Positions 1 through 62,513 are shown, counted from the stretch's first letter. The stretch: 62,513 bases of DNA from an uncultured Planctomycetales bacterium (GCA_964428315.1 CAYRXT010000013.1:1-62513), one strand, 5' to 3'. A program made the numbers and translations. Notes: generated by a model from the letters alone, not told the origin.

Positions 1-220
1 CCGAATTCCGAATTTCAGACGGATCAGAAAAGTTTTTGTCATTGCGAGCGACCAAAGGGAGCGAAGCAATCTCATAAAGATTATTCTGACAAAGATTGCT
101 TCGGCGCTCCTTGCCGTCGCTTCTCGCAAAGACGGAGAGGGTGTACGGTCTAAGGATTCGATATTCAGGATTGGGAATTTATTCGGGATTTGGGATTTGG
201 CATTGGGAATTTTGAAATCC
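1..220 (+). repeat. Palindromic interspersed repeat (PR element), copy 1, truncated by window edge
   Basis: Matches 1681-1900 almost base for base. It contains the hairpin GTCATTGCGAGCGACCAAAGGGAGCGAAGCAATC...GATTGCTTCGGCGCTCCTTGCCGTCGCTTCTCGC. The ends are inverted: CCGAATTCCGAAT vs ATTCGGGATTTGGGATTCGG. Confidence 0.9.
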
Positions 221-3200
221 AAAGGAGGTGAAAAATGGTTACCAAAGCGGATTATTTCGACCTGGCGTTCGATCATGTCATCGAGATCGCCCGACTCGAC
301 TGCGTCTTCGCGGCAACGCGCGAGCGCCGGACGGGCAAGACCCGGCTCTTCCTTATTTACAACCATACCGGCAAGGTTTATTTTCGCGATTCTCTTCGTG
401 ACAGGTGGGTTGAGCTGGAGGAGAGGGAGTACAACATCTTCCGTTCCCTCGCCGACCACGCCCTCATGGACCGCAGGATTCCCCGCCTCAGGACCGACGA
501 TATCCCTGATCTCAACTGAGCCGACCGGATGGCAGGGGACTCTCTCGGGTTGCGCCGATCCCCTCAGGCTGGTCCCCCTGGATATGGCGGTTTTTATCAT
601 CTGCTCCTGGCTGATGCTGAAACTGGACATCTTCTTCCTTGAGCGCGCCGCACGCAGGCGGTCCAGGGGTTACGTCACGGGACTGGCCCTGAGTCTGCTG
701 TTGACGTCTCCGTTAGTCGTGAAGTCAGCGCGGTGGATCAAAGGCGGCGGTTCGCCGGTTATACTGCCGGAAGGAACCTGCGCGGCCGTCGCGGGGGCCA
801 TTGGCCTTTCGGTATCGGGTCTGGAGCGGCTGATTACCGCCGTGACCCTCGTGGCGGCCGTCCTGATGTTCGACCACCTGTTTTTCAGAAAGATCTGGAA
901 AAGGTTTAAAGAGAGCAACCCCACCGCGGCGACCATAAACACGTTCCGTTCCCTGGCGAGGTTTGGGTTTATCATGTCGTCCCTCGCGGTTTGTGTCGCC
1001 ATAACGGTCATGGGGCCGGCGGCGCGGGATTCATCCGATCGGGAAAAGGCCGCATTGTCACAGGACAGCCGTCCCGCGGCGTTTTGCTCAGCGGAGCAGC
1101 TTGAGGCCGCGCTTGTGCGTATCAGCCGCACGTGGCGGGAGGAAGGCCGGTACCTTTTTATCAGCTTCCCGGACGGGCTTAACCTTTTTATTCCGCTGGA
1201 CGAGGCGGTACGGGCCATGGGGCCGAGGCCGTCGGACTCCGATGACAACGTGAGCGGCGTGACGTTGTTCACGACCTCGGGCGAAGATATCAGCACCAGG
1301 GCTGTCCTTACCCACGTTACTGCGGTCGTCCGCGATGGGCGCGTTTGCGAAGTCCTGCTTCCGGCCGGTGACAGGCGTTCCCGCCGGACGATACTGGACA
1401 TGGTGGAGAAACATGAGACCGGCTACAGCCTGGAAGGCAGACTGGTTCTGCCCCAAAATGACGATGACGATCAGATTAAAACCGTCGTGGAAGAACACAT
1501 CAAACAAAACCTGGTCAACGAGCGAATGAAGGTGAAAAAGGTTGTCATCGCCGGAGGAAGTTCCGCCCTTCACGCCGGCTTCGGGTTTGGGTGGATCAAG
1601 AAACTGTGGGCGGGGATTGTGAGGCTGGTCGGGAAGGAATCAGGAATGACAACTGACAGATGCCGAATAAATGTCGAATCCCGAATTCCGAATTTCAGAC
1701 GGATCAGAAAAGTTTTTGTCATTGCGAGCGACCAAAGGGAGCGAAGCAATCTCATAAAGATTATTCTGACAAAGATTGCTTCGGCGCTCCTTGCCGTCGC
1801 TTCTCGCAAAGACGGAGAGGGTGTACGGTCTAAGGATTTGATATTCAGGATTGGGAATTTATTCGGGATTTGGGATTCGGTATTGGGGATTTTGCAGTCC
1901 GCCTTGAGGATCCTGAGGCGGATGGTCCCGGCTTTGAGCTCCCGCGCCGCGGCGGTGTCGGCGTTCCTGACGGTCTTTTTCTTCAGCAGTGACCTGCTGG
2001 CGGCCGGAAACCAGGCCGCGAGGTCTTCCGGCCTGGAAGGCCTGGTGATCCTGCTGGCGCTGGTATGTGCAATGATAGAAAAAGCTGACCCTAATGGACC
2101 GGAAATCCGCGAATTGACGAAAGACGAATTGATAGAAAAAGCCATAAGTATTATCAGAAAGCATAATGAAAATAAAGGGGTTATGCCAAGTTTTGCAAAA
2201 ATCACGGTCCAGCCGGGTATGGACTACAGAAGGTTAGAAAAATGTCTATGGGACGTCTATCAGGGCTTGAAGTTGGAGGACATTTCATACGAGACATTTT
2301 TGTTGAAGATCCAATATGACCAATTCATAGGCGAAGAGAGGTGGTCATCTCTGCGGGATTTGGTGAATAATGTTTCAGAAGAAGTTTTGTCGTATTATGA
2401 AAAGCACGGAAAACTAATGAGGCTTCGCGCTATTAAGGATATTTCACGTGGCCAATACAATTTTATATATCCCCTTTTGGCAGAACGATTAATAAAACTT
2501 TTTGCAGAAGAAAAGAAAATCAGCGGCCAGAATCAGGAAGACATTGTTGTTATGATTCACAAAAAATTTAAAACGACAACAACCCGGCCTAATGCCGAAG
2601 AAAACCGGATGACGCTTTCCGGAGAGGGGTGGAAAAAACTGTTTTATGAGGCTGGGGCTGGAGCCGGATTTGATGATAAGAAGTATTGGGATACCCTGGC
2701 AGGGGGGATTGACAATTTGCACGTGGCCGAGACCCAAAGAAAGGTCATTTTTGCCGCGGCGAAAATCTTGAAAAAAGACGTTGATCCCGATGGACTTATC
2801 CGCGATTTTATTTGCTCGAAGGCATTTGTTTTCGGCTTGATCGAGGAATTCGCCGGATGGTTTTGGAATAAGAAGGTTGCTGGTTCGGCGGAGTCTCCCG
2901 GGAAAGGAGATTCAGGGACGGGCGGTATAGATCGCCGTATTATTTATTGGTCGACATTGGTAAGCAATACTCCTATTAACATGGAAAAAGCGTGCTTAGA
3001 GGCGACTGTGGAGTCTCTTTTAAGGGTTAAGGAAAGGCCCGTTGTTATTCGTATCGACTGGCAGAAAGCCCTCCAGTTCGTTGAATCATCCAGTATTAGT
3101 CTTTTCCGGGTTGTTTCTACCATCGGGACGCTTTTAGGAGGATTCGAGGGGCCGGAGCGCAAGTTTTTTGATGAAGCGGATATTGTTCTCAAGAACAAGG

Positions 3201-6200
3201 TTATTTCTCAATTGAATCCACGGTTGTGTCAATCCTTGGCCGAAGAGTTTATTAGTATGCTGGGCTGTCGCGGGGAGGACCGGTCAGTGGACTTATTTAA
3301 AAATTTAATGGACGATGATTCACGCCTGCATGTCCTACAGGAAATTTTTAAAGATTTCGTGGCGTCCCCAAGTACCCCTTCGAGATCGGGATCTAGCCGG
3401 GAAGAGATTGAGAAGGAAGACAAACGGAAAGACATTTTGAGATATTTCCTGCAGAGATGGTCTGGGGTATCCGTATTCGTAAAGGAAAACGCGGGGCATT
3501 TCACATTGTCCTCGATCCTGGCCGAGTACTTTTTAACCCTGTTAGAGGAAGAAAACCTTGATATGACTGATGAGAGCTTTTTTCCTGCGCAAAGGATTGG
3601 GAAGTTAGGGGAATACTTGGGAGAATACGAAGAAATCATTGAGAACCAGGGGGAACGCGTCCGGAGGATCGGTGAAGAACAGCAGAAGGTTTTACGCGAC
3701 GGCTGGAAAAAGCTTGAGCTGGATGGTGTCATAGAGGACTCTCTTAATCAAATTTTGAACAATGAGACGGAACTGGGATTTGACCTTGTGTTTGCGCGGG
3801 AGGTCTACCGGCGTCTGTTCAACAAAGAACTCGTTATCAAGCATGTGAGTGAATTCTTGACGATCCTTCAGCCCTTTTTGGATGAAAGCCCCCAGAAAAG
3901 TTCTCTGGAAGATGCGGTGTATATCGCAGAAAGACATTGTACGAGTAGGGAGCATGCGTTTATTTTGGTGATTGTGCCTATGGTTTGGGCGGTCATTCGC
4001 TTGAAAATTTTAAAAAAGTTTAAAGAATTGGGATTCAGGATTTGGAATGTGTCCGGGGTTCGGGATTTGTTATTTGGGATTATAAGCGGGGCCTTCGGCA
4101 CGACGAAAAACTTCGGAGTCCTGATGCGGGACTTCGCGGCATTCTTCCGGCGGCTGAAGACCTCGCCGCCTGCGCAGCCGCTTCAGGCCTTCTTCAAGCG
4201 TGACAGGAATTCCCGGGGCGTGAGGACGGGGATATGGCGGAACTTTTTTAAAGCCAGAAGATGGCTGTCGCCGGAGATGAACACGTTTGTGTCAATGACG
4301 GCTTTAAGCATGGTTCTCGCGGCAGGCCTTTATTTCTTCGGCAATGTCCTCGCTGGAGACGGGGAAGCGTTTCAGCCTCCGGTCGATCATCTTTTCGCTC
4401 TGCTGTATTTTAAGGTCAAGGCTTATTTTGATCATGTCGGGGGCCTTCGTATGTTTGTTAACCAATATAGCATGCGCCCCGGGAATAGGCAAGACAAGCC
4501 CGCGGATGCTGGTTTTGAAAAAGGAAGAGCCGTCGCCCTTCGCGCCGGCTTCGGGTTTGGGTGGATCAAGAAACTGCGGGCGGGGGTGGCGATAGCGGCG
4601 TTCATGTTTACGGCCTCGCCGTGTCTGGCCGGCGTTATCATGCCGCAGAAACAGCAGGGGGTGTGGGAAGGCCGGGTGCAGGGGATGATTATGATAATCC
4701 TGGGATTGTTATGGATTTATAATATTTGGAAAAAGTGGATAAGAGAACGCAAGATTTTGGAGAAGATGCAAGAAGCGGACGATGATTCGGATTTTGACGT
4801 GATGTCCGCCTTCTCCGGCGCCGAGGCGCTCCTCGCCCTCCTCGCGGCGGTGAAGAGGCTGTGGACGGCGGGCCTGAAGCTGGTCGGAAAGAAATCAGGA
4901 ATGACAACTGACAGATGCCGAATAAATGTCGAATCCCGAATTCCGAATTTCAGACGGATCAGAAAAGTTTTTGTCATTGCGAGCGACCAAAGGGAGCGAA
5001 GCAATCTCATAAAGATTATTCTGACAAAGATTGCTTCGGCGCTCCTTGCCGTCGCTTCTCGCAAAGACGGAGAGGGTGTACGGTCTAAGGATTTGATATT
5101 CAGGATTGGGAATTTATTCGGGATTTGGGATTCGGTATTGGGGATTTTGCAGTCCGCCTTGAGGATCCTGAGGCGGATGGTCCCGGCGAGCGCCGTTCTT
5201 TTTGCCATGGTTTGGGCCGTGGTTCACTGTGCAATGAGGCTGTTTGATGCTGACATCCCATGGGCCGACGAGGCCGCGGCCATGGGGATGGCGGTTCTTC
5301 CGAACGCGATCCTGAAAGATCAAAATCTTAAAAATCGCGCCGCGCAGGTCGTCCGCAGGTTCACGAGCCTCTTCCAGGATAATTCTGATTCGGTGCGTGG
5401 GAAAATCTTCGGCGGGGATTTTGTCCCGAGGCGTTATTCTGTTTATCTGAAACAGCTTGAGAGCGAAAGCGCTTGGGTGGAAGGCGATAGGGTCCTTGTG
5501 GACACGTACTTGGCCGCATGGTCGTCCGGACAAAGTTCTGAGGTGCTGTCATGTATGTGCCGCCGGGCCTCCATAAGGTATCACCTTGATCCAATAGAGG
5601 ATACGCATCCGTCGCCCGGACAGGTGCGGCTTCTTATTTTCACTTTGAAAATCACGAAAGCAAAGTTTCGGGGAAAGACAGCGGCTGATATGCACCGTCT
5701 TTTTTCCAGAAAGGACAACGCGGCTTCCTACGCCCTGTTTGAGAACCGCGTCTCTATGGACGGATTCTCCTGGTTGATGAATGACGAACCCGTCCGCGGG
5801 CGGGTGCTGAAGGCCGTTTGTGCCGCGGGGAACAGGACAGGTAATTTCTCGCTTTTCCTTGAGATCACCGCTCTCGGCCGGGAGGCCGAACCGGACATCC
5901 GGGTTCTGCACAGATTCATGGATAACTGTGACGGTTCGGACGAAAACATCGCGGCCCCATTCTTGAGTCTGCACGGGGACGATTTCCGGTTATACCGTTA
6001 TGTCATGGATACATTGAAGGTGAAGGAGGAGCGGGACCGTGGATCCCGAATATGGTCGGCCGGGCCCTCGCAGATAATCCCTCTTGTGACGAGCGGCTGT
6101 GATTCGCGAGAGGTCCAGGACCGCGCCGAAGATGTCCGGCCGTTTCTGCGTGTCCTGGAGGACTACGCGTCGCAGGCCGGGAGGCATTACAAAAACGGCA

Positions 6201-9200
6201 GATTACTAAAGGCCGTTATGTTTTACCGCATGGCATGGGACATTGTAAGATATCTGGACGGTCCCGGAGAACGCGTCAGCCCCCGCGGGCTGTCGCCGGA
6301 CCGGGACACGGGGAAGGCCGTCGCAAAGGCGAAGGCCTTAACGGCGTTCGGCTATCTGCATTCACTCGATCGCGCGGCGCTTCATCAGGAGGCCTCCGTC
6401 CGTATTACCGGTATCCCCCGACAGAACCGCGGCGTTATCCAGATGGAACATGCGGTCGTACACCTGGCTGGTGTCCTGAGAAATCTGGGAGAATATGAAG
6501 AGGCCTTGAAGCTGATGACCGCCTCCCCGGACGGCACAGAACTCCGGAAAGATATTGTTTGGATTCAGGCCCGGGACAAGGCTTTCACGCTTCTCATCCG
6601 CGTCTGGACGGAAATGGCCGAACGCGAGACGCAAGACTGGGAGGGTTTTATGCGGCGTTTTAAGGCTTTGATGACAGAAAGGAGAATCAGCAGGACAAGT
6701 TATGAAAAGAGACATGAAGAGCCCTTTGCATTTTCCGGCCGGGAAAGCAGGGCGGCGTCTCCTGTATTTCGCGGCAAGATGGATATAGAGACATTCGAAG
6801 GTGACCGGCGGGAGGTCCAGATTCCTTTTCCGTTTTCCGATCCGCTGGAGGCGGAGAAAACAATTTACCTGTTTGTCTTTCGTCTTATGCAGGCGGAGGA
6901 CTTCAAGAAAAGGTTAATCGGCAGTATTGACTATGGGACGCTTGCCGCAGAAGAGATGGCCAGGATCCTCGGGCTGAAGCCGAAAGAGGTTGATATGGAG
7001 TTTAATGCGGTGACTTGTGAGCATCAGTTTTTAACAAATAGCCTTTTGGTAAAGGAATTTCTTAGGACTGTCTGGTGCAAGCCGGTTGTTCTCGTCCGGT
7101 CCGGCGGTAAAACCTATTTGATAAGCGGCCGGATCATACAGACAGACAAAGAAAGCGCCCGACAACTTTTCGCCAGGACGCTTTACGATCACCTTCGTCT
7201 TGTCCCGTCCTCTTGTCTGCCGGACATGACAGAAGATTTCGAGGTTACCCTGTTGCCGAAGGATTTTGAGCGTCAGATTGTTCCTCTTGGATTAAACGGA
7301 CAGGGCGGGCGGGCGTGTACCGTCATGAAGGCCGGACCGGAACATGTCCTGGCAGGATTGGGCAGGGGACCTGTCGGTGACATAGCCCCGGACTTCCTGG
7401 ATTACGTGACGGTCTCGCGTTTGAACACGCTCATTTTTACGGAAGCGCTTCCTGATCAGGTCAAAGAGTTGTATCGGCTTCTTGTTGCTTCCGACGTGAA
7501 GGTGTTATGGATGACGGAACCGGCTTTCGTTTTGACTAAAGACTTATGGGAGCATGATGTAGTAGGGTCCAAAAAGGAATATTTGGGGGTTTCGCGCATT
7601 ATTAAAGACTTGTTGGAGACAATCGCGCATGTTCATTTTTCCCGGTGGTATAAGCTGGGTGATGAGCTGACACTGTTAGTTTCCCGGGCCGGAGGTTTGC
7701 CCGGCAACGGCATTCTGTTATTCGGCACGCCCGGGGGATTTATCATGGAGGCGGGTCCGCGTTCACTGAAAGGCTCGGTATTAACGGAGGACGCGCAGGT
7801 GCCTGGTTATCCGGTGGACTGCCTTGTGAAACGGGTCGCTCCTTTATCCGTTACGGGCGGTGAGACCAAAAACCGGAAAGAGGACCTGGCCGGTCATGTG
7901 GCGCGGGTCATCCGCCGGGGAGGACATGTCTTCATCAGCGCTTGCGCGGTCGGAGCAGCCCAGGAATTTCTGTCACTCCTGATCCAAAAGCAAAAGCAGT
8001 CCGGTTATCCGGAGTTTTCCGTCTATGTCGCGGGATCGGTCTCAAGCATCACGGATTTAATAGACCGATATCCGAGGGTTTTCCCTGTCCGTCCCGGGGA
8101 GAGGCAGCGGCAGGATCCGGGACATGTCTTCATTCATGGCCGCGGCCCGGTGCGGAAACTGGAGGCCTTGCCAGATATGAATAATGTATTGGGTGTGCCG
8201 GGGGTTTTTGTGGTTCCCGAGGACTGGCAGAAAAATCCGAAGTGCCGTTGGATTTTCCGTCGGGTGGCGGCCGGAGCGAAGAACATGGTTATTGATGACG
8301 GCCCACCGGGGCGGGGCCTTCCGTCCTGGACCGGCGGGCCCGGGATGCCCGCTGCTGTCACCGCCGAGACTCTGAAGACCGACATTCTGCCTCCCGACAA
8401 CCCGCAGGATACCGCCGCATTTATCCGAAACGTTGACCCGGCCAGGGTCATCATTACCGGGGTGACACCGCGAGGGGCCGGGCTGTGGAAGAGGGTTCTG
8501 GAGGACGGGCTGAATGGCAGCTATCGCATTGAGACGGCCCGGCCTATGGTCCCGATGCATTTACCATTATCCGCTGACAGAAAGACGCTATTCGATTCTA
8601 TACTAATGACAAAGGAAAGGGGCAGTTTTTACGGTTTATTCATGGCCGCCGAAGCCGCGCTGGCGTTTTGGGTTGCCGGGGTCCTGCGCGCGGCGGCGCG
8701 GCTTCTGTCCCTGCCCGGTTTCGCCGCCTGGTTCGCGCGGACACACACGCGGTTTAAATCACGAATGACAAATAACAAATACCGAATTCCGAATTTCAGA
8801 CGGATCAGAAAAGTTTTTGTCATTGCGAGCGACCAAAGGGAGCGAAGCAATCTCATAAAGATTATTCTGACAAAGATTGCTTCGGCGCTCCTTGCCGTCG
8901 CTTCTCGCAAAGACGGAGAGGGTGTACGGTCTAAGGATTTGATATTCAGGATTGGGAATTTATTCGGGATTTGGGATTCGGTATTGGGGATTTTGAAATC
9001 CGCCGCCGGAGTGGCGAAAAACTTCGGCGTCCTCGCGCGGGACTTCCTGACATTCTTCCGCCGGCTGAAGACCTCGCCGCCTGCGCAGCCGCTTCAGGCC
9101 TTCTTCAAGCGTGACAGGAATTCCCGGGGAGTGAGGATAGGGATATGGCGGAACTTTTTTAAAGCCAGAAGATGGCTGTCACCGGATACGATGAGATCGG

Positions 9201-12200
9201 CGCCTTCCATGGCCGCTTCCAGGAAACGGTTATCCTGGGGATCTTCTTTGATGACGGTTAATGTCCTGCGCGGTCTGACCGCCACGGCCTGGATATGGAT
9301 TGTTTCGATGAGTCTGGCGGCGATGTCGCGGGTGATGACGGGATGGAACTTCGGTCTTGACAGGACGTCGATGAGTTCTTTGAGCGTGGCCGGCGATATG
9401 ATGAGCTTGAACCTGTTGTTTTTTAACGCTGAGATGATCTTTCGGTTTGTGGAATCTTTGAGCAGGCCGGAGATGAACACGTTTGTGTCAATGACGGCTT
9501 TAAGCATGGTTCTCGCGGCAGGCCTTTATTTCTTCGGCAATGTCCTCGCTGGAGACGGGGAAGCGTTTCAGCCTCCGGTCGATGTCACTCAAAATGCCGC
9601 TCCAGCGCCGGCGGAGGGTCTTCCGTTCAAGGTTGCGGAGAAGTCTGAGTTTCTGCGTAACCGGAAGGCGGTCAATCATCTTTTCGATCTGCTGTATTTT
9701 AAGGTCAAGGCTTATTTTGATCATTTCGGGTGCCTCCGTGTGTTTATTAAGCAATATAGCATACAGCCCGGGAATAGGCAAGACAAGGGACGCCGTCGCG
9801 TCTTCTGGGCGGCGAGGAAGCTGTGGGCGGCGGTGGCGATAGCGGCGTTCATGTTTACGGCCTCGCCGTGTCTGGCCGGCGTTATCATGCCGCAGAAACA
9901 GCAGGGGGTGTGGGAAGGCCGGGTGCAGGGGATGATTATGATAATCCTGGGATTGTTATGGATTTATAATATTTGGAAAAAGTGGATAAGAGAACGCAAG
10001 ATTTTGGAGAAGATGCAAGAAGCGGACGATGATTCGGATTTTGACGTGATGTCCGCCTTCTCCGGCGCCGAGGCGCTCCTCGCCCTCCTCGCGGCGGCGA
10101 GGAGGCTGTGGGCGGCGGGCCTGAAGCTGGTCGGGAAGAAATCACAAATGACAAATGCCAAATGCCGAATAAATGTCAAATTCCGAATTCCGAATTTTGA
10201 ACGGGATCGCAAAGACGGAGAGGGTGTACGGTCTAAGGATTTGATATTCAGGATTGGGAATTTATTCGGGATTTGGGATTCGGTATTGGGGATTTTGAAA
10301 TCCGCCGCCGGAGTGGCGAAAAACTTCGGCGTCCTCGCGCGGGACTTCCTGACATTCTTCCGCCGGCTGAAGACCTCGCCGCCTGAGTGGACCGGACAAT
10401 TCCCCATCCCTCCGCTGGGTTGCCTTGCCGTCGCCTGTCCTTCCGCGGCCGGACTCAACTCTATCACAGGCTATTGGCCCTGGGCGGCCGGCATCCTGCT
10501 GTGGCTGGCCATCCGCCGGGCTGTTTTGCGTAACCGCATTCCCTCCTTCCTTGTCACCAACCGTACCGAGAGGCTAGAGGCCGTGGCGGCTGTTCGGTCA
10601 GCCATCAGAGAAGAGATCCCCGTTGGCGGATGGCAGACGGCTCCCCTCAGCTATCTGCAGTATATCGAGTGGCTTTTGTCGAGGCTTCCCGAAGAGCGGA
10701 AAAATATTGAAGGCATCCGGATTATCCCATGGTATCTGAGCTTTGGGTTTCTTACCGGCCGTTTGGGAGGATTTTCGAAGAAGTCAAACGTGTTGACGGT
10801 CGTGTATCTTCCTTTCGGGAAAGTGTTCAAGAGGATTTGGGACCACGAGACAATCCATGTCCTGCTGGAGCATAATACGGAAGGCCGCGAGGAATTTACG
10901 GAGCACTGCTGGCATAATGTGGACCGCAGTAACCTGCGGACAGTTTTGAAGCTCGGCCTTGAGGCCTTAGCCTCATTTATTATTAACGTGGCAGCCCAAA
11001 CCTTATTGCTTTCAGCCGTTTTGGCGCTCGAAGCGACAAAGGCGCTGAGTCTTGCCTTTTTGGGGTATGCTGTCGTGTTCCTGTTCACGGATACATTATT
11101 GTTCCGTTTTCTGCTCCTGCTGTTCAATCAAAAAATCGAGGAGGTGAAGATGGGAGAGTCAGCGCATATGGTGAGCCTTTACGCGTTGACAAACCCCGAC
11201 GAGGATGGAGCGGAAACCGGAGCCAGTATCCTGGCTGGAGAGACAGGCGTGTTGACGGAGGGGCCTCTTTTCGATAAAGCGGAAACACTCAAACAAAAAG
11301 TCATTAAGGACGAAGATTTGTGCGCCCTGATGGAAGGGGCGAGACGTTTTGCGCATTCGGCCGTTTCCTATACCCTGACGGTCCGCTCCGCGCTCGTTGC
11401 CAGCTTTCTGGGCCATGCGTGGGTCATTACTTTCCTGGCGGCGGGGATGGATTCGGATTTTCACTGGATCACGCTGAAAGCGGCGCTGTACGCCGCGTTG
11501 GTCATGGGCTTTGCGATACATGCTTCCCGGTTCCGATCCCGTTTTGGGATCAACAGCCGCCTGGCGGGCGTAGTGAGGATTTGGCATGACGCCATGCGGC
11601 CGGTTGCTTTCATCGCGGTTTTACTTAATCTGTTTATTTCCAGCCCTGTGGAAATGAAGATCAGGGAATATCTTTCAGAAAAGTTGAGCAGTGATCCGAA
11701 TTATTATATCAATTTGAGGATCCCGGGGCACGAGACGGAAAGGCCGGCTCGATTGATCCTGACGGACTGGCGGATGACTCCCGAAGACGCGTCAAGGGTT
11801 GAGATTGAACCGGAAGAATTCCGTGAGGAGGCCTCAGAGAAGCCGGCGCGTCAGGCCGCGCCGCAGCGCGCGGGCTGTTACAGGTTTGAGTGGCCGCGCA
11901 GTTATAATGTTGGCGGCAGATATATTCCGGATCCTTTTGCCAAGGACAGTTCGGATTTTGCGGAAGCGGGCTTTGCCGTGACCCTCATGGAATTCGGACC
12001 GGAGGACGACAACCTATGGCCTCCTCCTTACGGGAAGGCGGTCCTGCTGGACGATTTGTCTGAGTTCGAGGGAATACGGATCTCAGTCGAGAAAGCGGAT
12101 CCCGGTACAATAGAGTTGATTTTTACTCTTGTGGTGTATTGTAACGAAAGGGGCACCAGATATAGGTTTGCTGAAATTGTGCTGCCCTTAACATTGTCCG

Positions 12201-15200
12201 GCGAGGACAACCAGGTCCTGTATGTCCCCGTGGAAAGCCTGCCTAATTGCAAATGGAATTACGGTATAAAACTTTATTATTTGCAGTTCTTTTTCAGTCC
12301 GGCCGGCCAGACGCCCATCAGGGCCAGGATTAAAGAGATCGAGTTTGTGCCCAAGGCGGGGACGGCTTGCTCGGAGAGCCGCCCGATATCGTCTCAACCG
12401 GGTGTGTCAGAAGCGGAGACCGGAAAAGAAAACGCGTCCGCCCTTTACGCCGGCTTCGGGTTTGGGTGGATCAAGAAACTGTGGGCGGCGGTGGCGATAG
12501 CGGCGTTCATGTTTACGGCCTCGCCGTGTCTGGCCGGCGTTATCATGCCGCAGAAACAGCAGGGGATGTGGGAAGGCCGGGTGCAGGGGATGATTATGAC
12601 AATCCTGGGATTGTTATGGATTTATAATATTTGGAAAAAGCGGATAAGAGAACGCAAGATTTTGGAGAAGATGCAAGAAGCGGTCGATGATTCGGATTCA
12701 GGCTTGATGTCCGCCTTCTCCGACGCCGAGGCGCTCCTCGCCCTCCTCGCGGCGGCGAGGAGGATGCGGGCAAAAGTCTTGTCATTGCGGGGAGCCGCCG
12801 GGACATTGTCGCGCGAGATCGCCGTCACTGCGAGCGACCAAAGGGAGCGAAGCAATCTTTGTCAGAATGTAATTAATGTAATGAATGAGATTGCTTCGCT
12901 CTTCCGGACTCGCAATGACAGAAAGATTAATAAGCTGCTGTCCAGATTCTTGTCATTGCGAGCGACCAGCGGGAGCGAAGCAATCCCTGCTATTGTGAAG
13001 GCTTCTTCCCCTACGATTCGGCATTTGTCTGGCGCTTGGGATTCGGTATCGGGGATTTTGAAATCCGTGATGGCAGTTCACTTTATCGGGAGGCTGCCGG
13101 GCGCTTTGTTAACCTCTATCCGTGGCTGGTGGAGACAAAGACCGCGTAAACCGATAGCCTCCTTCCACTTTATTAGGTCAGGAGGGTGCGAAAGCTCGCA
13201 GTATTCGGATGCGTATTATGCTTCTTCTTTTGGACTGCTGGAATTCCTGCAATCGGCAAGTGGGCTCTTGCATATGGCACGTGTTGTTATTCAACGACTT
13301 GGCGGGGAAGAGAATCGGGTGACAATGGATCATGTCCATTATACAAGTAATGATGTGCAAAAAATTGATGAGCTGGCGGCTCATTTTAAAGAGAAAAATG
13401 CGGCCTGTACTGTACGGTATTGGAAGCAAGGAGGAAAGGCCGTCAGGGTTATGAGTCTTGAGAAGCCTTTGCAGCACGGTTCAGAACTTGGGGTGAAGAC
13501 GGTGATGATAACAACCCTGGACGGCGGGGAGGCGTGTGGAACGGAAGGGGGTTCATGGCAGGCCGGATTTTATTACAGGGGAAAGGCCGGGGATCTGAAA
13601 TTGCCGGAACCGTGGGGGGGTGTCGCTTATAAGGGATCGTCGTATGAGGTGAAAAGGAGAAATCCTTATGCGATTGAGGTGGAGAGCGGGGCAGACTTGT
13701 TCGTTATCAGAAGCCTGCCGCTGTGCGGAAAAGAGAAAGAAATCAAATTGATCAAGGCTCACATGGGCATGGTCAGGAAGATTGCTGCTAGTTCTGGCGG
13801 GAAAAAAAGAGCGGGCTTCAACGAGCTTGTTGCCGCGGGAAATTTGGGGCTGACAGAGGCCGCAAAAGCATTCGCCGTGGAAATAGGAGTTCAGTTTTAC
13901 ACATTCGCAGTCAGACGAATAAAGGGTGCAATAACAGATTATCTGAGAGCCCTAAGCTGTGGGAAAAGGAAGAGTCATGAATGGGTAACAAAGGACCTTA
14001 ACCCCTTTATAGAGCAGTTTGCCCAGGAGAACAGCCGGTTGCCGACGGAACAGGAGATCCTGGAAGGCTTGGGATGCACCGAAGCAGAGTCGCGCTACAG
14101 GATTGAAACCAGTTCTTTTCAATGGCCTAGTTTGCAGGATTCCTTTAGGAATAGCAAAGGCGAGGAATGCAGATCAATAACAATGGCGGATCGCATTCCT
14201 GACGGGTCTGTCGAATCACCCCTGGCTCACATGATTCATAAGGAGGATATGCGAAGAATTTGGAAAGCTTTTAAAGAAGTGGGAGGCAGGCAATGGAAGA
14301 GAAACAAGGAAATATTTATAATGTATTTTTACGACGGCCTCCCGTGTTGGGAAATCGCAGATTATTTTGGGCTAACAGAATCTGCGATCTCTTTGATTAT
14401 TACAAAAATAATAAAAAGTCTGCGAAAAACACTGGGGCGTGAAGACAGGGACGACGATCGGCCCGGCAGTCTGGATGCGACAGCCATGAAGGATTTGGCG
14501 GCGCGGCTTCTAGAGAGCGCGCTGAGAGGCTTCGGACAACCGGACCGCACTGTTCAAGAGGAGCGGGAAGGAATAATCCTAGAGCTTTTTTCAAATGTGA
14601 AAGGTGAAAAATCGAAAAGAGCCTTGATGATCATGAAAATGTTATATTTAGACGAATTACCACCGAAGCAAATCGCAAATCATTTTGAACTGACAACAGC
14701 CTGTATCAATGAGATTCGGGAGCGAATGATAGATGGAATAGAGATGGAAATATGGCGCCGGGAAGACAATAACGAGGAGGCCCAGAGTTTGACAGGACTA
14801 TTCCCCGTTACCGGCGACGGGCTGGCGCTCGCCATGGCCGCGGCGGTCATTCTCCTGGCGCGGCTGGTGTACGGTGTGCGCGCGGCCGGGAGATCCGCCG
14901 CGCTGGCGTACGGCATGGATGTCTTTGTCAAGGCGGTCAACGCGTTCAGCCTGCGCGGGGCGGACAGAGAAAGACTGGCCCGCGCGCGCGTCCTGGTCTT
15001 GGCCGGCGGCAGCGGCGCGGGGCGCTCCCATATCATCAGTCTTCTGATCCGGAACGGGAACGCCGGCCGCGGCAGGGAGGCCCGGCACCTGAGGCTCGTC
15101 ACCAGTCGGCCGGCCAGGAGCAGTGGAGATGACAAGGAATGCGTGTCCATGTTCCGTTTCCTTAGGATGATGTTCGGCGGAAAGCTTGTGGACGTTCGGT

Positions 15201-18200
15201 TCCATTGGGAAGAGCTGGCCTTCTACGCGTTCAGGAAAGACGCCATCCTCCGGGACGGCGAGGATGAGACCGTCTGGCTCGCGGACGTACTGAGGTTCGA
15301 AAGCTTCCTCAAACTCCAAAAGATCTTCCCGGACATCGCGCTGGTCTACATCTCTCCGTTGCCCGTCGAAGAGCTGGAAGACGGCACGGCGGCGCTGGAG
15401 GCCGAGCTGACCCGGCGGCTCAGGGCCAGAAACGGCGGCATGACAGAGGAAAAGATCAGGCGCAGGGTCCGTCTGAGCACGGTTGAGTATCACAAGTTTA
15501 TGCGGCATATGGATGAAAACAGCGGTGGCGTTATCTTCATCAACACGATCCCCGGCCCGGGCGGATGGACGATGAAGAGAAAGATAGCTGATTTTCAATA
15601 TTCATTTCCCGCGGCTGTCCGGCCTCCTGCGCCACTGCCCAACGGGCCGGAGGCTTCAATGACCCGGGACGGGCCCAATGCCGGGACACATCCGGCGAAA
15701 AGATGGGTGCGGGAGCCCGGCACCACCGGATTTCATGAAGGCCACGATCCCTTGGCCCATCATTGGCAGACTGCAAACAATAACTATATAGGTTTGAACC
15801 ATGCTTTTGACGCCGTGAATGGCAATGACGATAGAACTCCCGCCGGGGGGGGGATTGATCCTCTTGAGGGCGTCCGGATGATCCGGGCGGCGTTGCAAAA
15901 TCAGTATGGGGATGCGTCTCGGCGGGACGCCGCCCGCCCGGACGGTCTTCACAGCCTCCTCTTCTGGGGCGGGATGCTGGCGACCGGGGTCTTCTTCTAC
16001 CGGCTGGTCCGCTCTTCGCTGTTAAAGGACTCCCTGCTTGCAGGGCGAGTTCTCACTCCGACGGTATCGCTGGCCGGGCTGGCCGACCGGTTGTTATTCA
16101 GGAAGATCTGGAAAAAGTTCGGTGAAGGCAGCGCCTTCGTGGCGACCTTGAACACGTTCCGCAGGATACCAAGGCTCGGGCTCTTCCTTTTGGTCATCTC
16201 GGTCACCGTCGCGCTGGTGGGGAGCGCGCTTTCGGAGAGAAAGAAGAGATCTGTCCCCCTGCAACCTTCCGAGAAGGTTGAGCCCGCGCGGAGCGCCGGC
16301 ACGGCGCTGAGGAGCGTTGATGCGCTGAGCGGGATTATATTTATTGGATTAGCGGCTGTGACCGTGCTCATGGCCTGGTTCATTTCGATGTGGGAAGACT
16401 GGAAGCCGGCCCGGAATCGAGCGGTGAAGTATGCGCGCGTTACGGCAGGGTACGTGGTCATTATCGGTCTGGGCGCGTGGCTGACGGATAACTTGTTGGT
16501 GATGTTACTATTCAGTTCCATCGGGTATGGATTTTTATATACATGCTTCAGTGAATCGGGAGACCGTGGAGCAAATGACAGAAAGGTTTACACAATTTCC
16601 GATTTGATATTTGGGATTGGGAATTTGTCCGGTGCCCGGGATTGGTTTTTTGGGATTTTGAAACCCGCCTTGAGGCCCCTGAGGCGGATGGTCCCGGCTT
16701 TGAGCTCCCGCGTCGCGGCGGTGTTGGCGTTCCTGACGTCCTTCTTCTTCAGCAGTGGCCTGCTGGCGGCCGGAAAGCAGGCCGCGCGGTCTTCCGGCCT
16801 GGAAGGCCTGGTGATCCTGCTGGCGCTGGGCGTGGTCGCGCTGGGGATGTGCCGGTATCATGCGGCAAAACATGAAGAGGCGCCGGGCCTCTCCGACGCC
16901 GGCGAAATCATGCGCCGCTGGCTTTACGGACGGGAAGACCTCCTCGCGCTTGCCGGCGGTGACCCTGAGACCGCCGAGGAGGTCCTCAAGACCATCGAAC
17001 TGCTTACTGCCGAAGCGTCCGCGGCCGGAAAGAATATCCACCGGCAGGACGAAGAAGGGTTCACGGGAGGCCGGGACCGGTTCAGCGATGATTTGCAAAA
17101 CCGGGGTGTTTCCCATGGAGAACTGCTCGCGCTCATGGAGTCTCTCAGGGAGAAGGCGGGCCGGGCCGCCGCAACCGGGGTGGAGTTGAAGGAGGAGGCG
17201 GACCTTGTGCGGTGCGGCCAGGAGGCGCGGACCGGCGTTTCCATGGCGAAATGGATCGGATGGGCGACTATTGCCGCCGGGCTCGTCGGACTGTTCGGCC
17301 GGCTGGCGCTGACCGGAGTGGTGGAAGCCGGCATCTCCTGGCTGGCCGGCGGCATAATTGTGGCCGGGGCGGCCACAATTCTCCTGGACCTGGTTGTCCT
17401 GGGGTGGGACGGTTTCGTTGAGAGCCTGAAGGAAGAGAGGGCCGCAGAAGATGTCGGGGCGCGCCGGACAGCCCGGCTCCTGAAACGGGCATGGCTGACC
17501 GCCGGTATTATATTCCTGGCCTTTCTGGCGGCGGCGGCCCTGACGGTGCCGGGGCTGTTCGGGGAAGCGATGGCGGGTGCGGCCGTCCAGAAGGCGGCCC
17601 TTTCGTCGGGCATCCTGGGGCTTATCAGCATCGCCGTGGGCCTGGGATACGGGAAGGCCGAAGAAGGCTCGTTCCAGATGAACCTGCGTTCGGGGCGGTT
17701 GTTCCGGTTCTTCATGTTCGCCTTGGCGGCGTTCATGGCCGGGTCCATGGCGGTGGACGCGGCACAGGCCTTTGCCGCGGGCCCGGCGCCGGACGCGGAC
17801 GGCGGCGCGGATGGTGACGGGGGGCTGTCCCCGTCAGGGGACCCCTCCGAAGGAGGAGCTGTGTCTCCGGCAGAAGGCGTAGTGCCGGCTGTGGACCGTC
17901 CTCAGCCGGACACGCCGCGGGAGGAGGGGCCGGAAGAAATGGCGCTGACGGATGCCCCTGCGAAAGAGCCGGTCTCCGTTGTTACGCAGGAGACGCGGGT
18001 GAATCCGGCGCGGGATCCGGAAAAGGCGTCCGCTCCGGACGGTACCAAAGGCACAGTCATATCCGCCGGAGATGACGGCGGGGATTCCTTCCTGTCGCGC
18101 GCGCGGGATTTTGCCGCGAAGGTCTGGGACGGCGTTTCTTTTGTGGGCACTGCCGCGGCGGCCGAATCCTCCCCGGCGGCCGGGCCGCCTTCGCCGCCTT

Positions 18201-21200
18201 CGTCGCCTTCGCCGCCTTCGCCGCCTTCGCCGCCGAAGAGGCCGCGGGATAAACCGACGGACGCTGCCGTTGCTGTGGAAGCGTCCGGCTTCTGGGCCGC
18301 TGTGGCCGCGGACAGTGTTTACACGCCGGAGGACGTCGCGGCGATGGCGCGCGCGACCGACAGCCTGTCTCGCGCCAAGGGCATCCCGGACAGCGATGAC
18401 TTTAAAAGACTTCTGGCGCCGGCCCTGCGGACGGCCGCGACCGCGCGGGATTCGCTGGAGGCGGTCAGGGCGCTGTTCATTCCGCGGGGAGCGGGGGCAT
18501 TCAGATTTCCGGACGAAGAGGTCCTTATTGCGCGGTCTTTTGCCGCGCCGCTGGCCGCGACAGACAGCCTGCGAAGGATCTTGAGCGGAGAACAAGGGCC
18601 GGAAGGGGTCATGAAATTTCTGGGCGAAGGCTGTATTTTAACCGTGTCTTACGCCGGGGCGGGCCTGTCGCGCGTAATGGCGGAGACCGTGTTTGAAACA
18701 AGGGTCATGGTTCTTCCGGGGCATAAATGTCTTTTCGTGAGCCTGCCCGGAGAAGAAGAGGGCTTTGTCTTTGACAGCGCGCTGCTGACAACCGGCCCGG
18801 TCTTCCGGCTGGCACAGTACACGGAGAAGAAAGGGGAGACCTATTATTTCAAAGAGGCGTTTTATGCCGATGTCATGCCCCGGGGATGGGCCGCCTACAA
18901 GGAGAATTTTACGAAATTCCGGCTGGGCCGCGTTGAGAAATTCGCGGCAGGCCTTTTATACAATATCGGCCGTTATTACGACGATCATTATGACTTTGCC
19001 GCGGGGGCGGATTATTTCAGGCGCGCGGCGGCGGTTGATCCGTCGGACACCGAGGCGTGGCATTTGCTGGGCGAAAGCTATCTGGAATTAGGAGAGCTTG
19101 GGCACGCGGTCGCATCCTTCAGGCGGGCCTTCGCGGCGGATCCGCTCCTGCTGGAGAGCTGGCATAACCGCGGAACCATGTTCTATCTTTCTGAGAATTA
19201 TGATAAAGCCGCGAAATATTTCCTGGTTGTTTCGTCGGTGGCCCCGAAGACCACCGGCCTCTGGTCCTCCCTGCTGGCCGGCGGCGTTTACACGCCGGAG
19301 GACGTCGCGGCGATGGCGCGCGTGACCGACAGCCTGTCTCGCGCCAAGGGCATCCCGGACGCGGATGACTTCAAAAGACTCCTGGCGCCGGCCCTGCGGA
19401 CGGCCGCGACCGCGCGGGATTCGCTGGAGGCGGTCCGGAGTGGCTTCGCGTCCCGGGGCCTCGAGCAGAGGCTCGGCGCCTACAACACCGGCGAACACAT
19501 GTCCCTCTTAAAGACCTTCGCCCTTCCGCTGGTCCGGGACGACAGCCTCCGGGCGTTGCTGGCGGACCCGGCCCGGACGGACGAGATAATACAGTACACA
19601 GGCGAGGGCTGTGCCCTGGACATGCCTTACGCGGGCATCACGCTGAAACGTTTTCTGGAAGGCACCGGATTCGAGGTCAGGAAGATGAAACTGCCGGGGC
19701 ATGTCTGTCTGTATGTCATCCTCGGCAAGGATTACGGCTTTATCTTTGACAGCTTTCACCGGACGTTCAGCCCGCCTTTCCGTCTGGAGCAGTACACGGA
19801 ACGCAGAGGAGAGGGGCCGGTTTATTATTTCAAAGAGGCGTTTTACGCCGATGTCATGCCCCCGCGCTGGAAGCCCTTTAAAGACGAGCTGATCAAATTC
19901 ACCCTCAGCGATCCCGGGACGTTTCCCGGGGACATGCTGGGGAACCTGGGCGTCGGCTATTATGCGGACAAAAATTATGAAGTGTCGCTGGAATATTTCG
20001 CGGCGGCTTCGGCCCTCGATACGGCCGAAATGGTTTACGCGCGCGGGACGGCCGACGCGTATTATGCGATGAAGGAAAACAAGCAAGCGGAGTATTACTA
20101 CCGCAGGACGCTGGAACTGGACCCCGATAACCTGGGGGCGTTGTACACCATCGGGGTGATGTTCGAGGAAGCGCGTGAATATGAACAGGCGGCGGCATTC
20201 CTTTCAAGGGCCCTGGACCAGGACTCCACGGACGCGGACGTGCTCGAATACCTGGGGCGCGCCTGCTATTACCTGGATCAGGATACACTGGCGGCCGGAT
20301 ACCTTGAGAGGGCCCTCGCCGAGGATCCCGCGGACGCGGACGTCCTCAAGTATCTGGGCATGACGTATTATTATATGGATAGAAACGCGGAGGCGGCGGG
20401 GCTTCTGGAGAGGGCCGCTGCCGCCGACCCCGCGAGTTCCCTGATCCGCAGGTTCCTCGGGCTGTCCTATTTCTATCTGGACCGGCCGGCGGAGGCGGTC
20501 ATCCGGCTGAAGCAAGCCCTGGACATGGTCCCCGGCGACGTTGAGGCCCTGACCTATCTGGGGCACGCGTATCTGGAGATGGATGAATACGAAAAGGCGG
20601 CGGATTATTTCGGGAAAGCCCTGGGGATAAACCCCGGCGACAAAGACTTGCAGGAATACTGGATCGAGGCCCGGGGGAAAATGAACGAGGATGGCTGGGC
20701 CGCGCCCGGTTCCGCGGATTCTTCCGGGACGAATAACCCGCGGGATTCGTCAGACACCCGGCCCTATTCGCTCCTCACCGTGCCGGAAGGCTGGGATGGC
20801 GGCGGGCGGACCTTCCGTTCGGCCGTGGTCCGGCGGGACGGGCGCTATGTCATCCAGGAAGAGGATCCGGCCGGGCTCTTCGCGGACATCCAGGCGGCGC
20901 TGGACCAGCTGCCCCATCTCTGGCCCCGGGACGTGCGCGGCCCGCCGGAGAGGTTCGAACTTGTGCTCACCGCCGACCGCCGGAAGCTGGGGACCGACCC
21001 CGAAACCGGCCTGACCTGCGCCGCATCCTCCGATACTGTCCGCGACACCGTTTATGTCCACCCGTACCTCAGGGACATCCTGCACGACACCGGAAGAGAG
21101 CTGAAAAACAACGAGAGTTTACGCGAACTGTACTTCCTGTTTTCCGGCCATATCGGTGTCAGTCATATTTACTACGACATATTTACCGAGAATCTCCTGA

Positions 21201-62464: not shown

Positions 62465-62513
62465 TAGTGACAAAAGTAACATGAAAGAAAAATGACAAAA
62501 AAATAGATTTTGT

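Follow-up and report, generated by a model that had tools for sequence, protein, structure and literature searches.

The window analyzed here, a stretch of 62,513 nucleotides (nt) from an uncultured Planctomycetales bacterium (GCA_964428315.1 CAYRXT010000013.1:1-62513), is spanned by one giant open reading frame (ORF) on the plus strand, inside which a small toxin-antitoxin operon lies on the opposite strand at 9094-9781. An earlier reading by a model that was given nothing but the DNA (the sequence-only reading) had proposed at this position a promoter, a GGAGG motif, a 74-amino-acid (aa) antitoxin and an overlapping 137-aa PIN toxin, and all of these elements were confirmed on the minus strand. 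A promoter scan and a pattern search place a -35 box, TTGCCT, at 9781-9776 and, after a 17-nt spacer, a TG-extended -10 box, TATATT, at 9758-9753. This sigma-70-type promoter (9753..9781) was the sole sigma-70-like site that the scan returned within 8600-10400. A Shine-Dalgarno (SD) sequence, GGAGG, can be read at 9737-9733; the antitoxin gene (9724..9500) starts 8 nt further on with the ATG at 9724, and its end overlaps the start of the toxin gene (9507..9094) by 8 nt, ATGCTTAA. The cassette has the bicistronic layout of a small upstream antitoxin, an overlapping stop and start, and a promoter of its own.

The 137-aa product is a PIN_3 (VapC-like) toxin. The two profiles that the sequence-only reading had pointed to, PIN_3 and TIGR00305, both match above their cut-offs, PF13470 with 83.1 bits (cut-off, 27) and TIGR00305 with 63.7 bits (cut-off, 29.15) over profile positions 1-115 of 115. 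In an alignment of 45 PIN sequences (44 relatives plus the one from the window), residues D7, S38, E44, and D92 are invariant and all are kept in the window protein, as are the near-invariant positions; D104 and D110 are also present. An AlphaFold2 model built from this alignment reached a pLDDT of 95.5 and a pTM of 0.88, and its top matches in Foldseek were VapC and other PIN structures (probability, 1.00; TM, ∼0.6), among them Shigella VapC (5ecw), AF0591, Rickettsia VapBC2, PAE2754, FitB, and M. tuberculosis VapC11. Searching the sequences in the Protein Data Bank (PDB) with the profile of the PIN clade and with a single PIN protein gave nothing meaningful, and an exact look-up of the window protein found no record.

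The antitoxin matches no Pfam family, a word-seeded search with its sequence gave no matches, and a PDB search with the antitoxin profile found designed helical repeats only. It does align to NF047401, the VapB15 family, with 31.7 bits (E value, 1.3e-7), and so did all 10 members of the antitoxin family that were tested (best E value, 1.2e-12), each under the equivalog cut-off of 80 bits. Because of these low scores, the antitoxin is placed outside the VapB15 family proper, as a distant relative of it and not a member. Downstream of the toxin gene, 23 to 40 nt past its stop codon, an inverted-repeat search found an imperfect palindrome, TCTTCCGCCGGCTGAAGA (9054..9071), which is followed by no T-run but may be a candidate transcript-end hairpin. 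By its sequence, the cassette is a complete and catalytically plausible type II toxin-antitoxin operon.

What sets this operon apart is where it lies. The host frame (2..62464, plus strand; codons at 197+3k) extends leftward to the edge of the window without a stop and ends with the stop codon at 62462-62464; counted from the first TTG, it encodes 20,755 aa over ∼62.3 kb, while each of the other five frames contains 315 to 919 stops. Just as the sequence-only reading had stated, the frame runs through the cassette uninterrupted: across 9094-9781, the three plus-strand frames contain 13, 0, and 19 stops, the zero being that of the host frame. From ∼13.7 kb on, a Pfam search in 1000-aa chunks detected in-frame sigma-70 regions 2 and 4, TPR, BNR/PSII_BNR, fn3, CARDB, three FlgD_ig domains, Peptidase_S8, FG-GAP, NosD, FBPase, and RelA_SpoT, that is, at least 11 distinct domain types. 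The frame is therefore a giant ORF in the sense used for the Omnitrophota, a single frame of >20 kb with several unrelated domains. Omnitrophota is also the most likely phylum of the host, judging from the nearest relatives of the nested PIN protein and from all source-named proteins that read through such cassettes, which come from metagenome-assembled genomes (MAGs) of Omnitrophica/Omnitrophota. The GC content of the window is 55%, versus 37 to 48% in the related loci.

The first ∼12 kb of the host frame, where the PIN cassette is located, are built from repeat families and gave no Pfam match. The host-frame translation of the cassette itself is unremarkable and partly hydrophobic, and a search with the host-frame module next to it (10388-12436) found no relatives. 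Neither Rfam over the whole window nor a tRNA scan yielded a hit, which argues against an explanation by an intron or an RNA element. When trained on the giant frame, a codon log-odds model mainly rewarded the absence of stops and did not distinguish between frames.

Two antisense relations connect the nested genes to the host frame. In the one we call r0, used by the PIN antitoxin, the codons of the two strands are aligned; in r1, used by the PIN gene, the wobble positions of the two frames coincide. In r1, each host codon is the complement of positions 2 and 1 of a PIN codon plus the preceding wobble base, and a host stop can result only from the PIN codons TAN (when the codon before ends in a pyrimidine) or CAN (when it ends in T). 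Since host stops arise at TAN codons, tyrosine is the dangerous residue of the PIN protein. Tyrosine indeed makes up 0.14% of residues in the close PIN clade versus 1.85% in distant PIN_3 proteins, and 84% of the 45 close-clade proteins lack it altogether as opposed to 8% of the distant ones (Mann-Whitney p = 4e-16, with samples that share phylogeny). An antisense arrangement with shared wobble positions is the least constraining relation. The idea that antisense is the sole orientation to permit a nested gene was found to be wrong, as same-strand nesting in another frame is possible in principle.

How often a stop-free host frame would arise by itself was estimated by resampling, with amino acid sequences held fixed and synonymous codons redrawn from the usage of the host. 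The antitoxin and PIN coding region of the window left the host frame without stops in ∼3% of resamplings. For nine other distinct cassettes of the clade, the corresponding fractions were 0.0000 to 0.0055 each, and all nine are actually open. Among 112 PIN_3 genes of all kinds, 11.6% have a stop-free r1 frame, and the stop-free cases noticed at a GC content of ≤45% are the nested ones. Nesting in an open frame is not a product of chance.

To see which strand carries the protein-level information, nine cassettes were compared pairwise. Mean amino acid identity was 0.50 for PIN and 0.50 for the antitoxin; translated in the host frame, the same two stretches of DNA gave 0.40 and 0.32, respectively. 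The BLOSUM62 score per site was 2.4 to 2.5 in the toxin-antitoxin frames versus 1.3 in the host frame. Changes that are silent in the toxin-antitoxin frame and alter the host frame exceeded the reverse type 1.93-fold in PIN and 1.51-fold in the antitoxin, where enumeration of all single-base changes gives a neutral ratio of 0.99 to 1.00. On the strength of these three measures, the toxin and antitoxin frames are under amino acid selection, and the host frame is essentially just kept open. A dual-coding pair with purifying amino acid selection on both strands was considered and ruled out by the lower conservation of the host frame.

These results refine what the sequence-only reading had offered as explanations, namely an in-frame captured insertion tolerated as a linker or else dual-strand coding. 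The segment does behave like a tolerated linker, in which the host frame is merely stop-free. Dual-strand coding holds insofar as both strands are constrained; selection on amino acids, however, acts on the toxin-antitoxin frames only. That reading had also called a functional antisense operon inside a coding frame unusual, which is fair for bacteria generally but not for this lineage or even this window, where the arrangement recurs.

To look beyond the window, we collected 11 distinct related cassettes for which DNA was available (in loci L081, L082 [two cassettes], L089, L002, L116, the L117 group, the L120 group, L122, and L123). The closest PIN relatives, at 55 to 66% identity, are metagenomic, several of them named Omnitrophica; a scan of species-representative genomes yielded distant PIN_3 proteins only (≤44% identity), which served as the background set with the exception of L002, itself a nested case. 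In 10 of the 11 related cassettes, the antisense r1 frame is open to the contig ends or, in L120, for 9.4 kb, the open frames spanning 0.75 to 10.8 kb: 10,818 nt in L081, 10,566 nt in L082, 9,414 nt in L120, 8,415 nt in L002, 7,200 nt in L123, 5,079 nt in L122, 4,026 nt in L117, and 1,164 nt in L089. Repeats of the same cassettes on other contigs are L118 (3,489 nt) and L119 (1,554 nt) for L117, L121 (753 nt) for L120, and L092 (1,455 nt) for the second cassette of L082. Every related locus has the full operon in the same bicistronic layout, with a TTGAC(T/G)-17-TATAnT promoter in the corresponding position and an AAGGAGG, and every one has a homologous antitoxin of 75 to 80 aa upstream of PIN. 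In L002, the PIN gene is truncated and the host frame is nevertheless still open. Antisense nesting is clade-wide and selected for.

Related proteins could also be approached from the other strand. When the host-frame translation of the cassette served as query in an exhaustive search, 11 other predicted proteins were retrieved, the longest of 4053 aa. Their annotations include "GNAT family N-acetyltransferase, partial" and "response regulator, partial"; nine clusters were looked up, and the source-named members, in six of them, are all Candidatus Omnitrophica/Omnitrophota MAGs. The host frames of L081, L082, and L002 carry in-frame HATPase_c, WD40, methyltransferase, TPR, HAD, and GNAT domains, with a HATPase_c domain of L082 sitting between its two cassettes. 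All that these host frames have in common is the cassette, the flanks being unrelated, and both the window and L082 contain two copies, the one at 7801-8450 of L082 being a divergent second PIN cassette. Given the shared cassette, the unrelated flanks, and the double copies, we take the cassette to be a unit that moves or is copied between giant frames. A transposon-, MITE-, or integron-like mobile unit was considered as its vehicle and found unsupported, with no consistent terminal inverted repeats around the cassettes of six loci and no recombinase domain in the frames scanned.

PIN cassettes are not the only nested elements in these relatives. Further antisense ORFs of toxin-antitoxin type with promoters of their own lie at 3599-7247 of L002 (HicB-like and AF2212-like), at 9178-10797 of L081 (HicB-like and DUF5678), and at 3333-3993 of L122 (a second PIN). 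In L081, a cluster of such antisense ORFs occupies the first ∼550 codons of the open frame. Gene calls at such loci are inconsistent: for L123, NCBI lists only the long protein and leaves the intact nested operon unannotated; in L120 (7402-16815), the 9.4-kb open frame around the cassette is uncalled and lies beside a called gene of 5133 aa; and in L117 (1-2726), a long gene call extends over the antitoxin.

Within the window itself, the PIN cassette is accompanied by direct repeats and by a second, decayed copy. A 179-nt sequence of repeat family D1 (8905..9083), which ends 10 nt short of the PIN stop codon, delimits the cassette on the PIN side; its second copy (10207..10385) is 100% identical and lies 1302 nt, or 434 codons, away, so that the pair brackets the cassette together with a repeated, membrane-segment-like module. 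Another perfect repeat, 158 nt in length (39107-39264 = 40601-40758), ends at the 3' end of a DUF433 operon described below. All 14 direct-repeat spacings measured in the window (within 1-14000 and 39107-40758) are multiples of 3. The decayed paralogous cassette (4183..4492, minus strand), recognized by repeat offsets of 4911, 5196, and 5289 and by alignment, keeps its promoter (4464-4492), its start codon, and both gene ends. What is left of the antitoxin (4435..4304) encodes 43 aa after the loss of 93 nt, and what is left of PIN (4311..4183) encodes 42 aa after the loss of 285 nt. Short microhomologies mark the sites of the two deletions. Each of them removed a multiple of 3 nt, and the host frame remains open there. 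Thus, cassettes die, as seen in this short copy and in the truncated PIN of L002, while the host frame persists, which points in the same direction as the asymmetry of substitutions.

Such decay invites the question whether the cassette at 9094-9781 is itself a dead fossil, i.e., a recently captured, nonfunctional operon that disabling mutations have not yet hit. While the decayed copy in the same gene and the truncated PIN of L002 would fit this view, we hold it to be highly improbable. Neither gene is truncated; catalytic residues, promoter, SD sequence, and translational coupling have all been retained; and purifying selection on the toxin-antitoxin frames is evident over divergence down to ∼40% identity.

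Screening the window for off-frame ORFs with a correctly spaced SD sequence, combined with a promoter-pattern search, revealed two more antisense operons in the same giant frame. The first is a HicBA operon (36806..37314, minus strand) with the promoter TTGACT-17-TATATT (37314-37286) followed by GGAGG. It encodes a HicB-like antitoxin of 75 aa (37266..37039; relation r1; PF15919, 44.7 bits with a cut-off of 27) and a HicA toxin of 78 aa (37042..36806; relation r0; PF07927, 60.9 bits with a cut-off of 27), whose genes overlap by 4 nt, ATGA. In the host frame, a FlgD_ig-type C-terminal domain immediately precedes the operon. The second operon (40757..41688, minus strand; promoter TTGACA-17-TATATT at 41688-41660) encodes three ORFs, all in r0: a DUF433 antitoxin of 80 aa (41635..41393; PF04255, 70.8 bits), a DUF5615 PIN-like toxin of 117 aa (41389..41036; PF18480, 74.7 bits), and a CopG/BrnA-like ORF of 90 aa (41029..40757). 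The first two score above their cut-offs, and the third, with 24.5 bits against PF12441, stays under the cut-off of 28. The pairing of DUF433 with DUF5615, a PIN-like family of the Mut7-C group, has already been described (PMC5499597).

There are no NCBIfam models for the HicBA, DUF433, and DUF5615 genes, and eight further SD-led off-frame ORFs in the window gave no Pfam match. All four promoter-pattern matches in the window lie on the minus strand, facing against the giant frame. Every nested gene uses either r0 (the PIN antitoxin, HicA, and the whole DUF433 operon) or r1 (PIN and HicB); the third antisense relation, which contains 19 stops across PIN, is used by none. Individually, the seven nested genes of the window have stop-free probabilities of 0.14 to 0.45, with a product of ∼5e-5.

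The giant frame has several peculiarities of its own. FlgD_ig or type IX-like C-terminal domains occur inside it at ∼32240-32428, 36338-36517, and 48437-48583. Two of the three are followed by "...GKKKLLLL", normally a protein end, and then by unrelated modules; S8 peptidase, FBPase, and RelA/SpoT modules come after these internal domains, and a sigma factor is found elsewhere. DNA that is normally intergenic, of a hairpin or REP-like kind, is read in frame at ∼40.5 kb and at several sites in 1-13 kb, for example "TKTGDSHQTGDSH" (GGTGACAGTCAC palindromes), "KGTGPFDGPFKGTAPV" (twice), and "VIASDQRERSNL" (minus strand, "SLRSLWSLAMT"), of which at least four copies are read in the plus frame. To us, the giant frame looks like formerly separate genes that may have been fused in one frame. 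Near the left edge, a plus-strand, off-frame ORF of 94 aa (235-519) has an AAGGAG 7 nt before its ATG; a crude coding score at 197-377 favors its frame, and it has no Pfam or NCBIfam match. At the other end, the A-rich DNA at 62462-62513 has five giant-frame stops in the 50 nt after the frame end, versus none in the preceding 62 kb.

Is the giant frame one translated gene at this place, or do the operons simply sit in ordinary spacers between plus-strand genes, with the continuity of the frame a by-product or an illusion of annotation? Apparent former gene ends (the three FlgD_ig-type C-terminal domains) and hairpin-like intergenic repeats within the frame could be taken to favor the latter, as could the first 12 kb without a Pfam match, the module beside the cassette without relatives, and the uncalled 9.4-kb open frame of L120. 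Even so, a frame of 62 kb without a stop, as against 315 to 919 stops elsewhere, cannot be a by-product; all repeat spacings, like the two decay deletions, come in multiples of 3; and stops are avoided down to the level of codons and amino acids in the nested genes. In addition, in-frame SD-led starts are not enriched within the giant frame, and published proteomics mapped peptides to a giant ORF in V. archaeovorus (PMC10066038). We therefore regard the spacer scenario as improbable.

The interpretation we favor, and judge to be probably correct, is that addiction modules have adapted to life in giant genes, the operon at 9094-9781 being an antisense type II operon nested in a giant multidomain gene. 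The operon would be transcribed from its own near-consensus promoter, head-on relative to the giant gene, as its sequence and the mode of VapBC systems suggest. If it works as VapBC systems do, the antitoxin would neutralize the PIN RNase and repress the promoter, and loss of the operon or of the antitoxin would release the toxin. With PIN in r1, the antitoxin in r0, and stop-creating codons and tyrosine avoided, these frame relations and avoidances would allow the giant gene to be read through the cassette, adding ∼230 residues of arbitrary linker. The cassette would then be a selfish module at home in the spacer regions of giant genes, where it persists and duplicates, and it would spread by duplication, possibly also by transfer, between giant frames. 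It would survive because it leaves the gene unbroken and is hard to delete, and any stabilization of the repeat-rich host segment would come as a by-product.

Several observations weigh against this interpretation. The -35 box of the window cassette, TTGCCT, is weaker than those of its relatives, and a terminator scan detected none after PIN and did not report the palindrome at 9054..9071. The substitution counts are pairwise and as such not phylogenetically independent. The related loci were ascertained via PIN and give no measure of how widespread nesting is in giant genes overall, and one of them, L116, is bounded, its antisense frame being open for just ∼1 kb around the cassette. As to how the cassette spreads, no consistent flanking inverted repeats were found around the cassettes of six loci, and the frames scanned with Pfam contained no transposase, integrase, or recombinase domains.

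Whom the cassettes serve is a separate matter. The nested operons might be kept for the benefit of the host, as stabilizers against deletion in a repeat-rich, recombination-prone giant gene or as regulators, in which case head-on transcription and operator-bound complexes would link expression of the giant gene to toxin release. Nesting is conserved across diverged genomes and several toxin-antitoxin families; recombination between the 179-nt perfect direct repeats around the PIN cassette could delete it, and the 158-nt perfect repeat abuts the DUF433 operon; and the four strong promoter matches all face against the giant frame. Toxin-antitoxin cassettes are also known to stabilize chromosomal superintegrons and genomic islands. 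We nonetheless think a host-serving role unlikely, given that cassettes decay (examples being the window's short copy and L002 with its truncated PIN), that their positions are not conserved between host frames, that a recent duplication would leave perfect flanking repeats just as well, and that the data at hand fit selfish persistence as much as a benefit to the host. A farther-reaching version would make the nested operons an integral maintenance or control layer of Omnitrophota giant genes, penalizing the recombinational loss of segments, with head-on promoters that tie toxin release to transcription of the giant gene. We are distinctly doubtful of it; were it true, giant genes could grow and persist in these small genomes only through such policing modules.

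The nested operons bear on how giant genes are read. The frame stays open even where the protein meaning is on the other strand, which is evidence for end-to-end reading of giant ORFs, and the in-frame-only decay of cassettes bears on whether these ORFs are single products. There is also an annotation blind spot: gene callers leave the nested operons hidden in some cases (L123) and break up the giant frame around them in others (L120 and L117), and therefore toxin-antitoxin inventories and giant-gene lengths of Omnitrophota are both likely underestimated. Conversely, the two-strand constraint signature of frame relation, codon avoidance, and tyrosine loss could be used to find nested genes elsewhere. 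More generally, addiction modules may colonize, and perhaps stabilize, very long repeat-rich genes.

Compared with what is known, the cassette itself is closest to VapBC type II systems, and PIN_3/COG1569 toxins have been placed in the VapC-like group (PMC5499597). With VapBC systems of known structure (Shigella VapC, 5ecw; Rickettsia VapBC2, 3zvk; and M. tuberculosis VapBC11, 6a7v), it shares a coupled upstream antitoxin, a PIN toxin of ∼135 aa, acidic active-site residues, a VapC-like fold, and a promoter of its own. It differs from them in an antitoxin that is distant from VapB15 and without a Pfam family, and in that the whole operon is antisense inside another ORF, has had its codon and residue usage shaped by it, and contains almost no tyrosine.

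The host frame, in turn, resembles the giant ORFs of Omnitrophota ("Archaeovorins" and the multi-enzyme class) in its length of >20 kb, its many unrelated domains, its long unannotated stretches, and its poor conservation. Such ORFs are common throughout the phylum, with few annotated domains and poor conservation (PMC10066038); a "multi-enzyme" architectural class has been distinguished among them (10.64898/2026.06.07.730766), and whether the product of a giant ORF acts as one molecule has been stated as an open question (10.1101/2023.11.21.568195). These papers deal with sense-strand content only, as opposed to the antisense operons described here: the word "antisense" is absent from the texts of all three, and "opposite strand" is absent from both preprints. 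A literature search likewise found no description of nested toxin-antitoxin operons. The recurrent architecture, in which several toxin-antitoxin families lie antisense in giant ORFs of an Omnitrophota-type lineage, appears to be undescribed and to escape standard annotation, and its sequences bear clear molecular signatures of long-term adaptation.

Three kinds of genetic element offer partial parallels. Like the stabilizing cassettes of superintegrons and genomic islands, the operons described here are small addiction modules scattered in one orientation over long, dispensable or repeat-rich DNA; unlike them, they come with no attC sites and no integrase and sit inside one frame that is left open and not between genes. 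Inteins and intron-encoded homing endonucleases are selfish elements that survive in an essential or large host gene without destroying its product, and here, too, decayed copies keep the host frame. In contrast to these elements, however, the cassettes occupy the opposite strand, lack any splicing signature or Rfam intron match, and appear to leave their extra residues in the product. Finally, long antisense overlapping gene pairs have been reported in bacteria, and in these, too, both strands of one stretch of DNA carry an open frame. The nested operons depart from such pairs in two respects: the overlap extends over whole operons of 0.5 to 0.9 kb and recurs across genomes, and the constraint is asymmetric, acting on protein sequence on one strand and on openness alone on the other.

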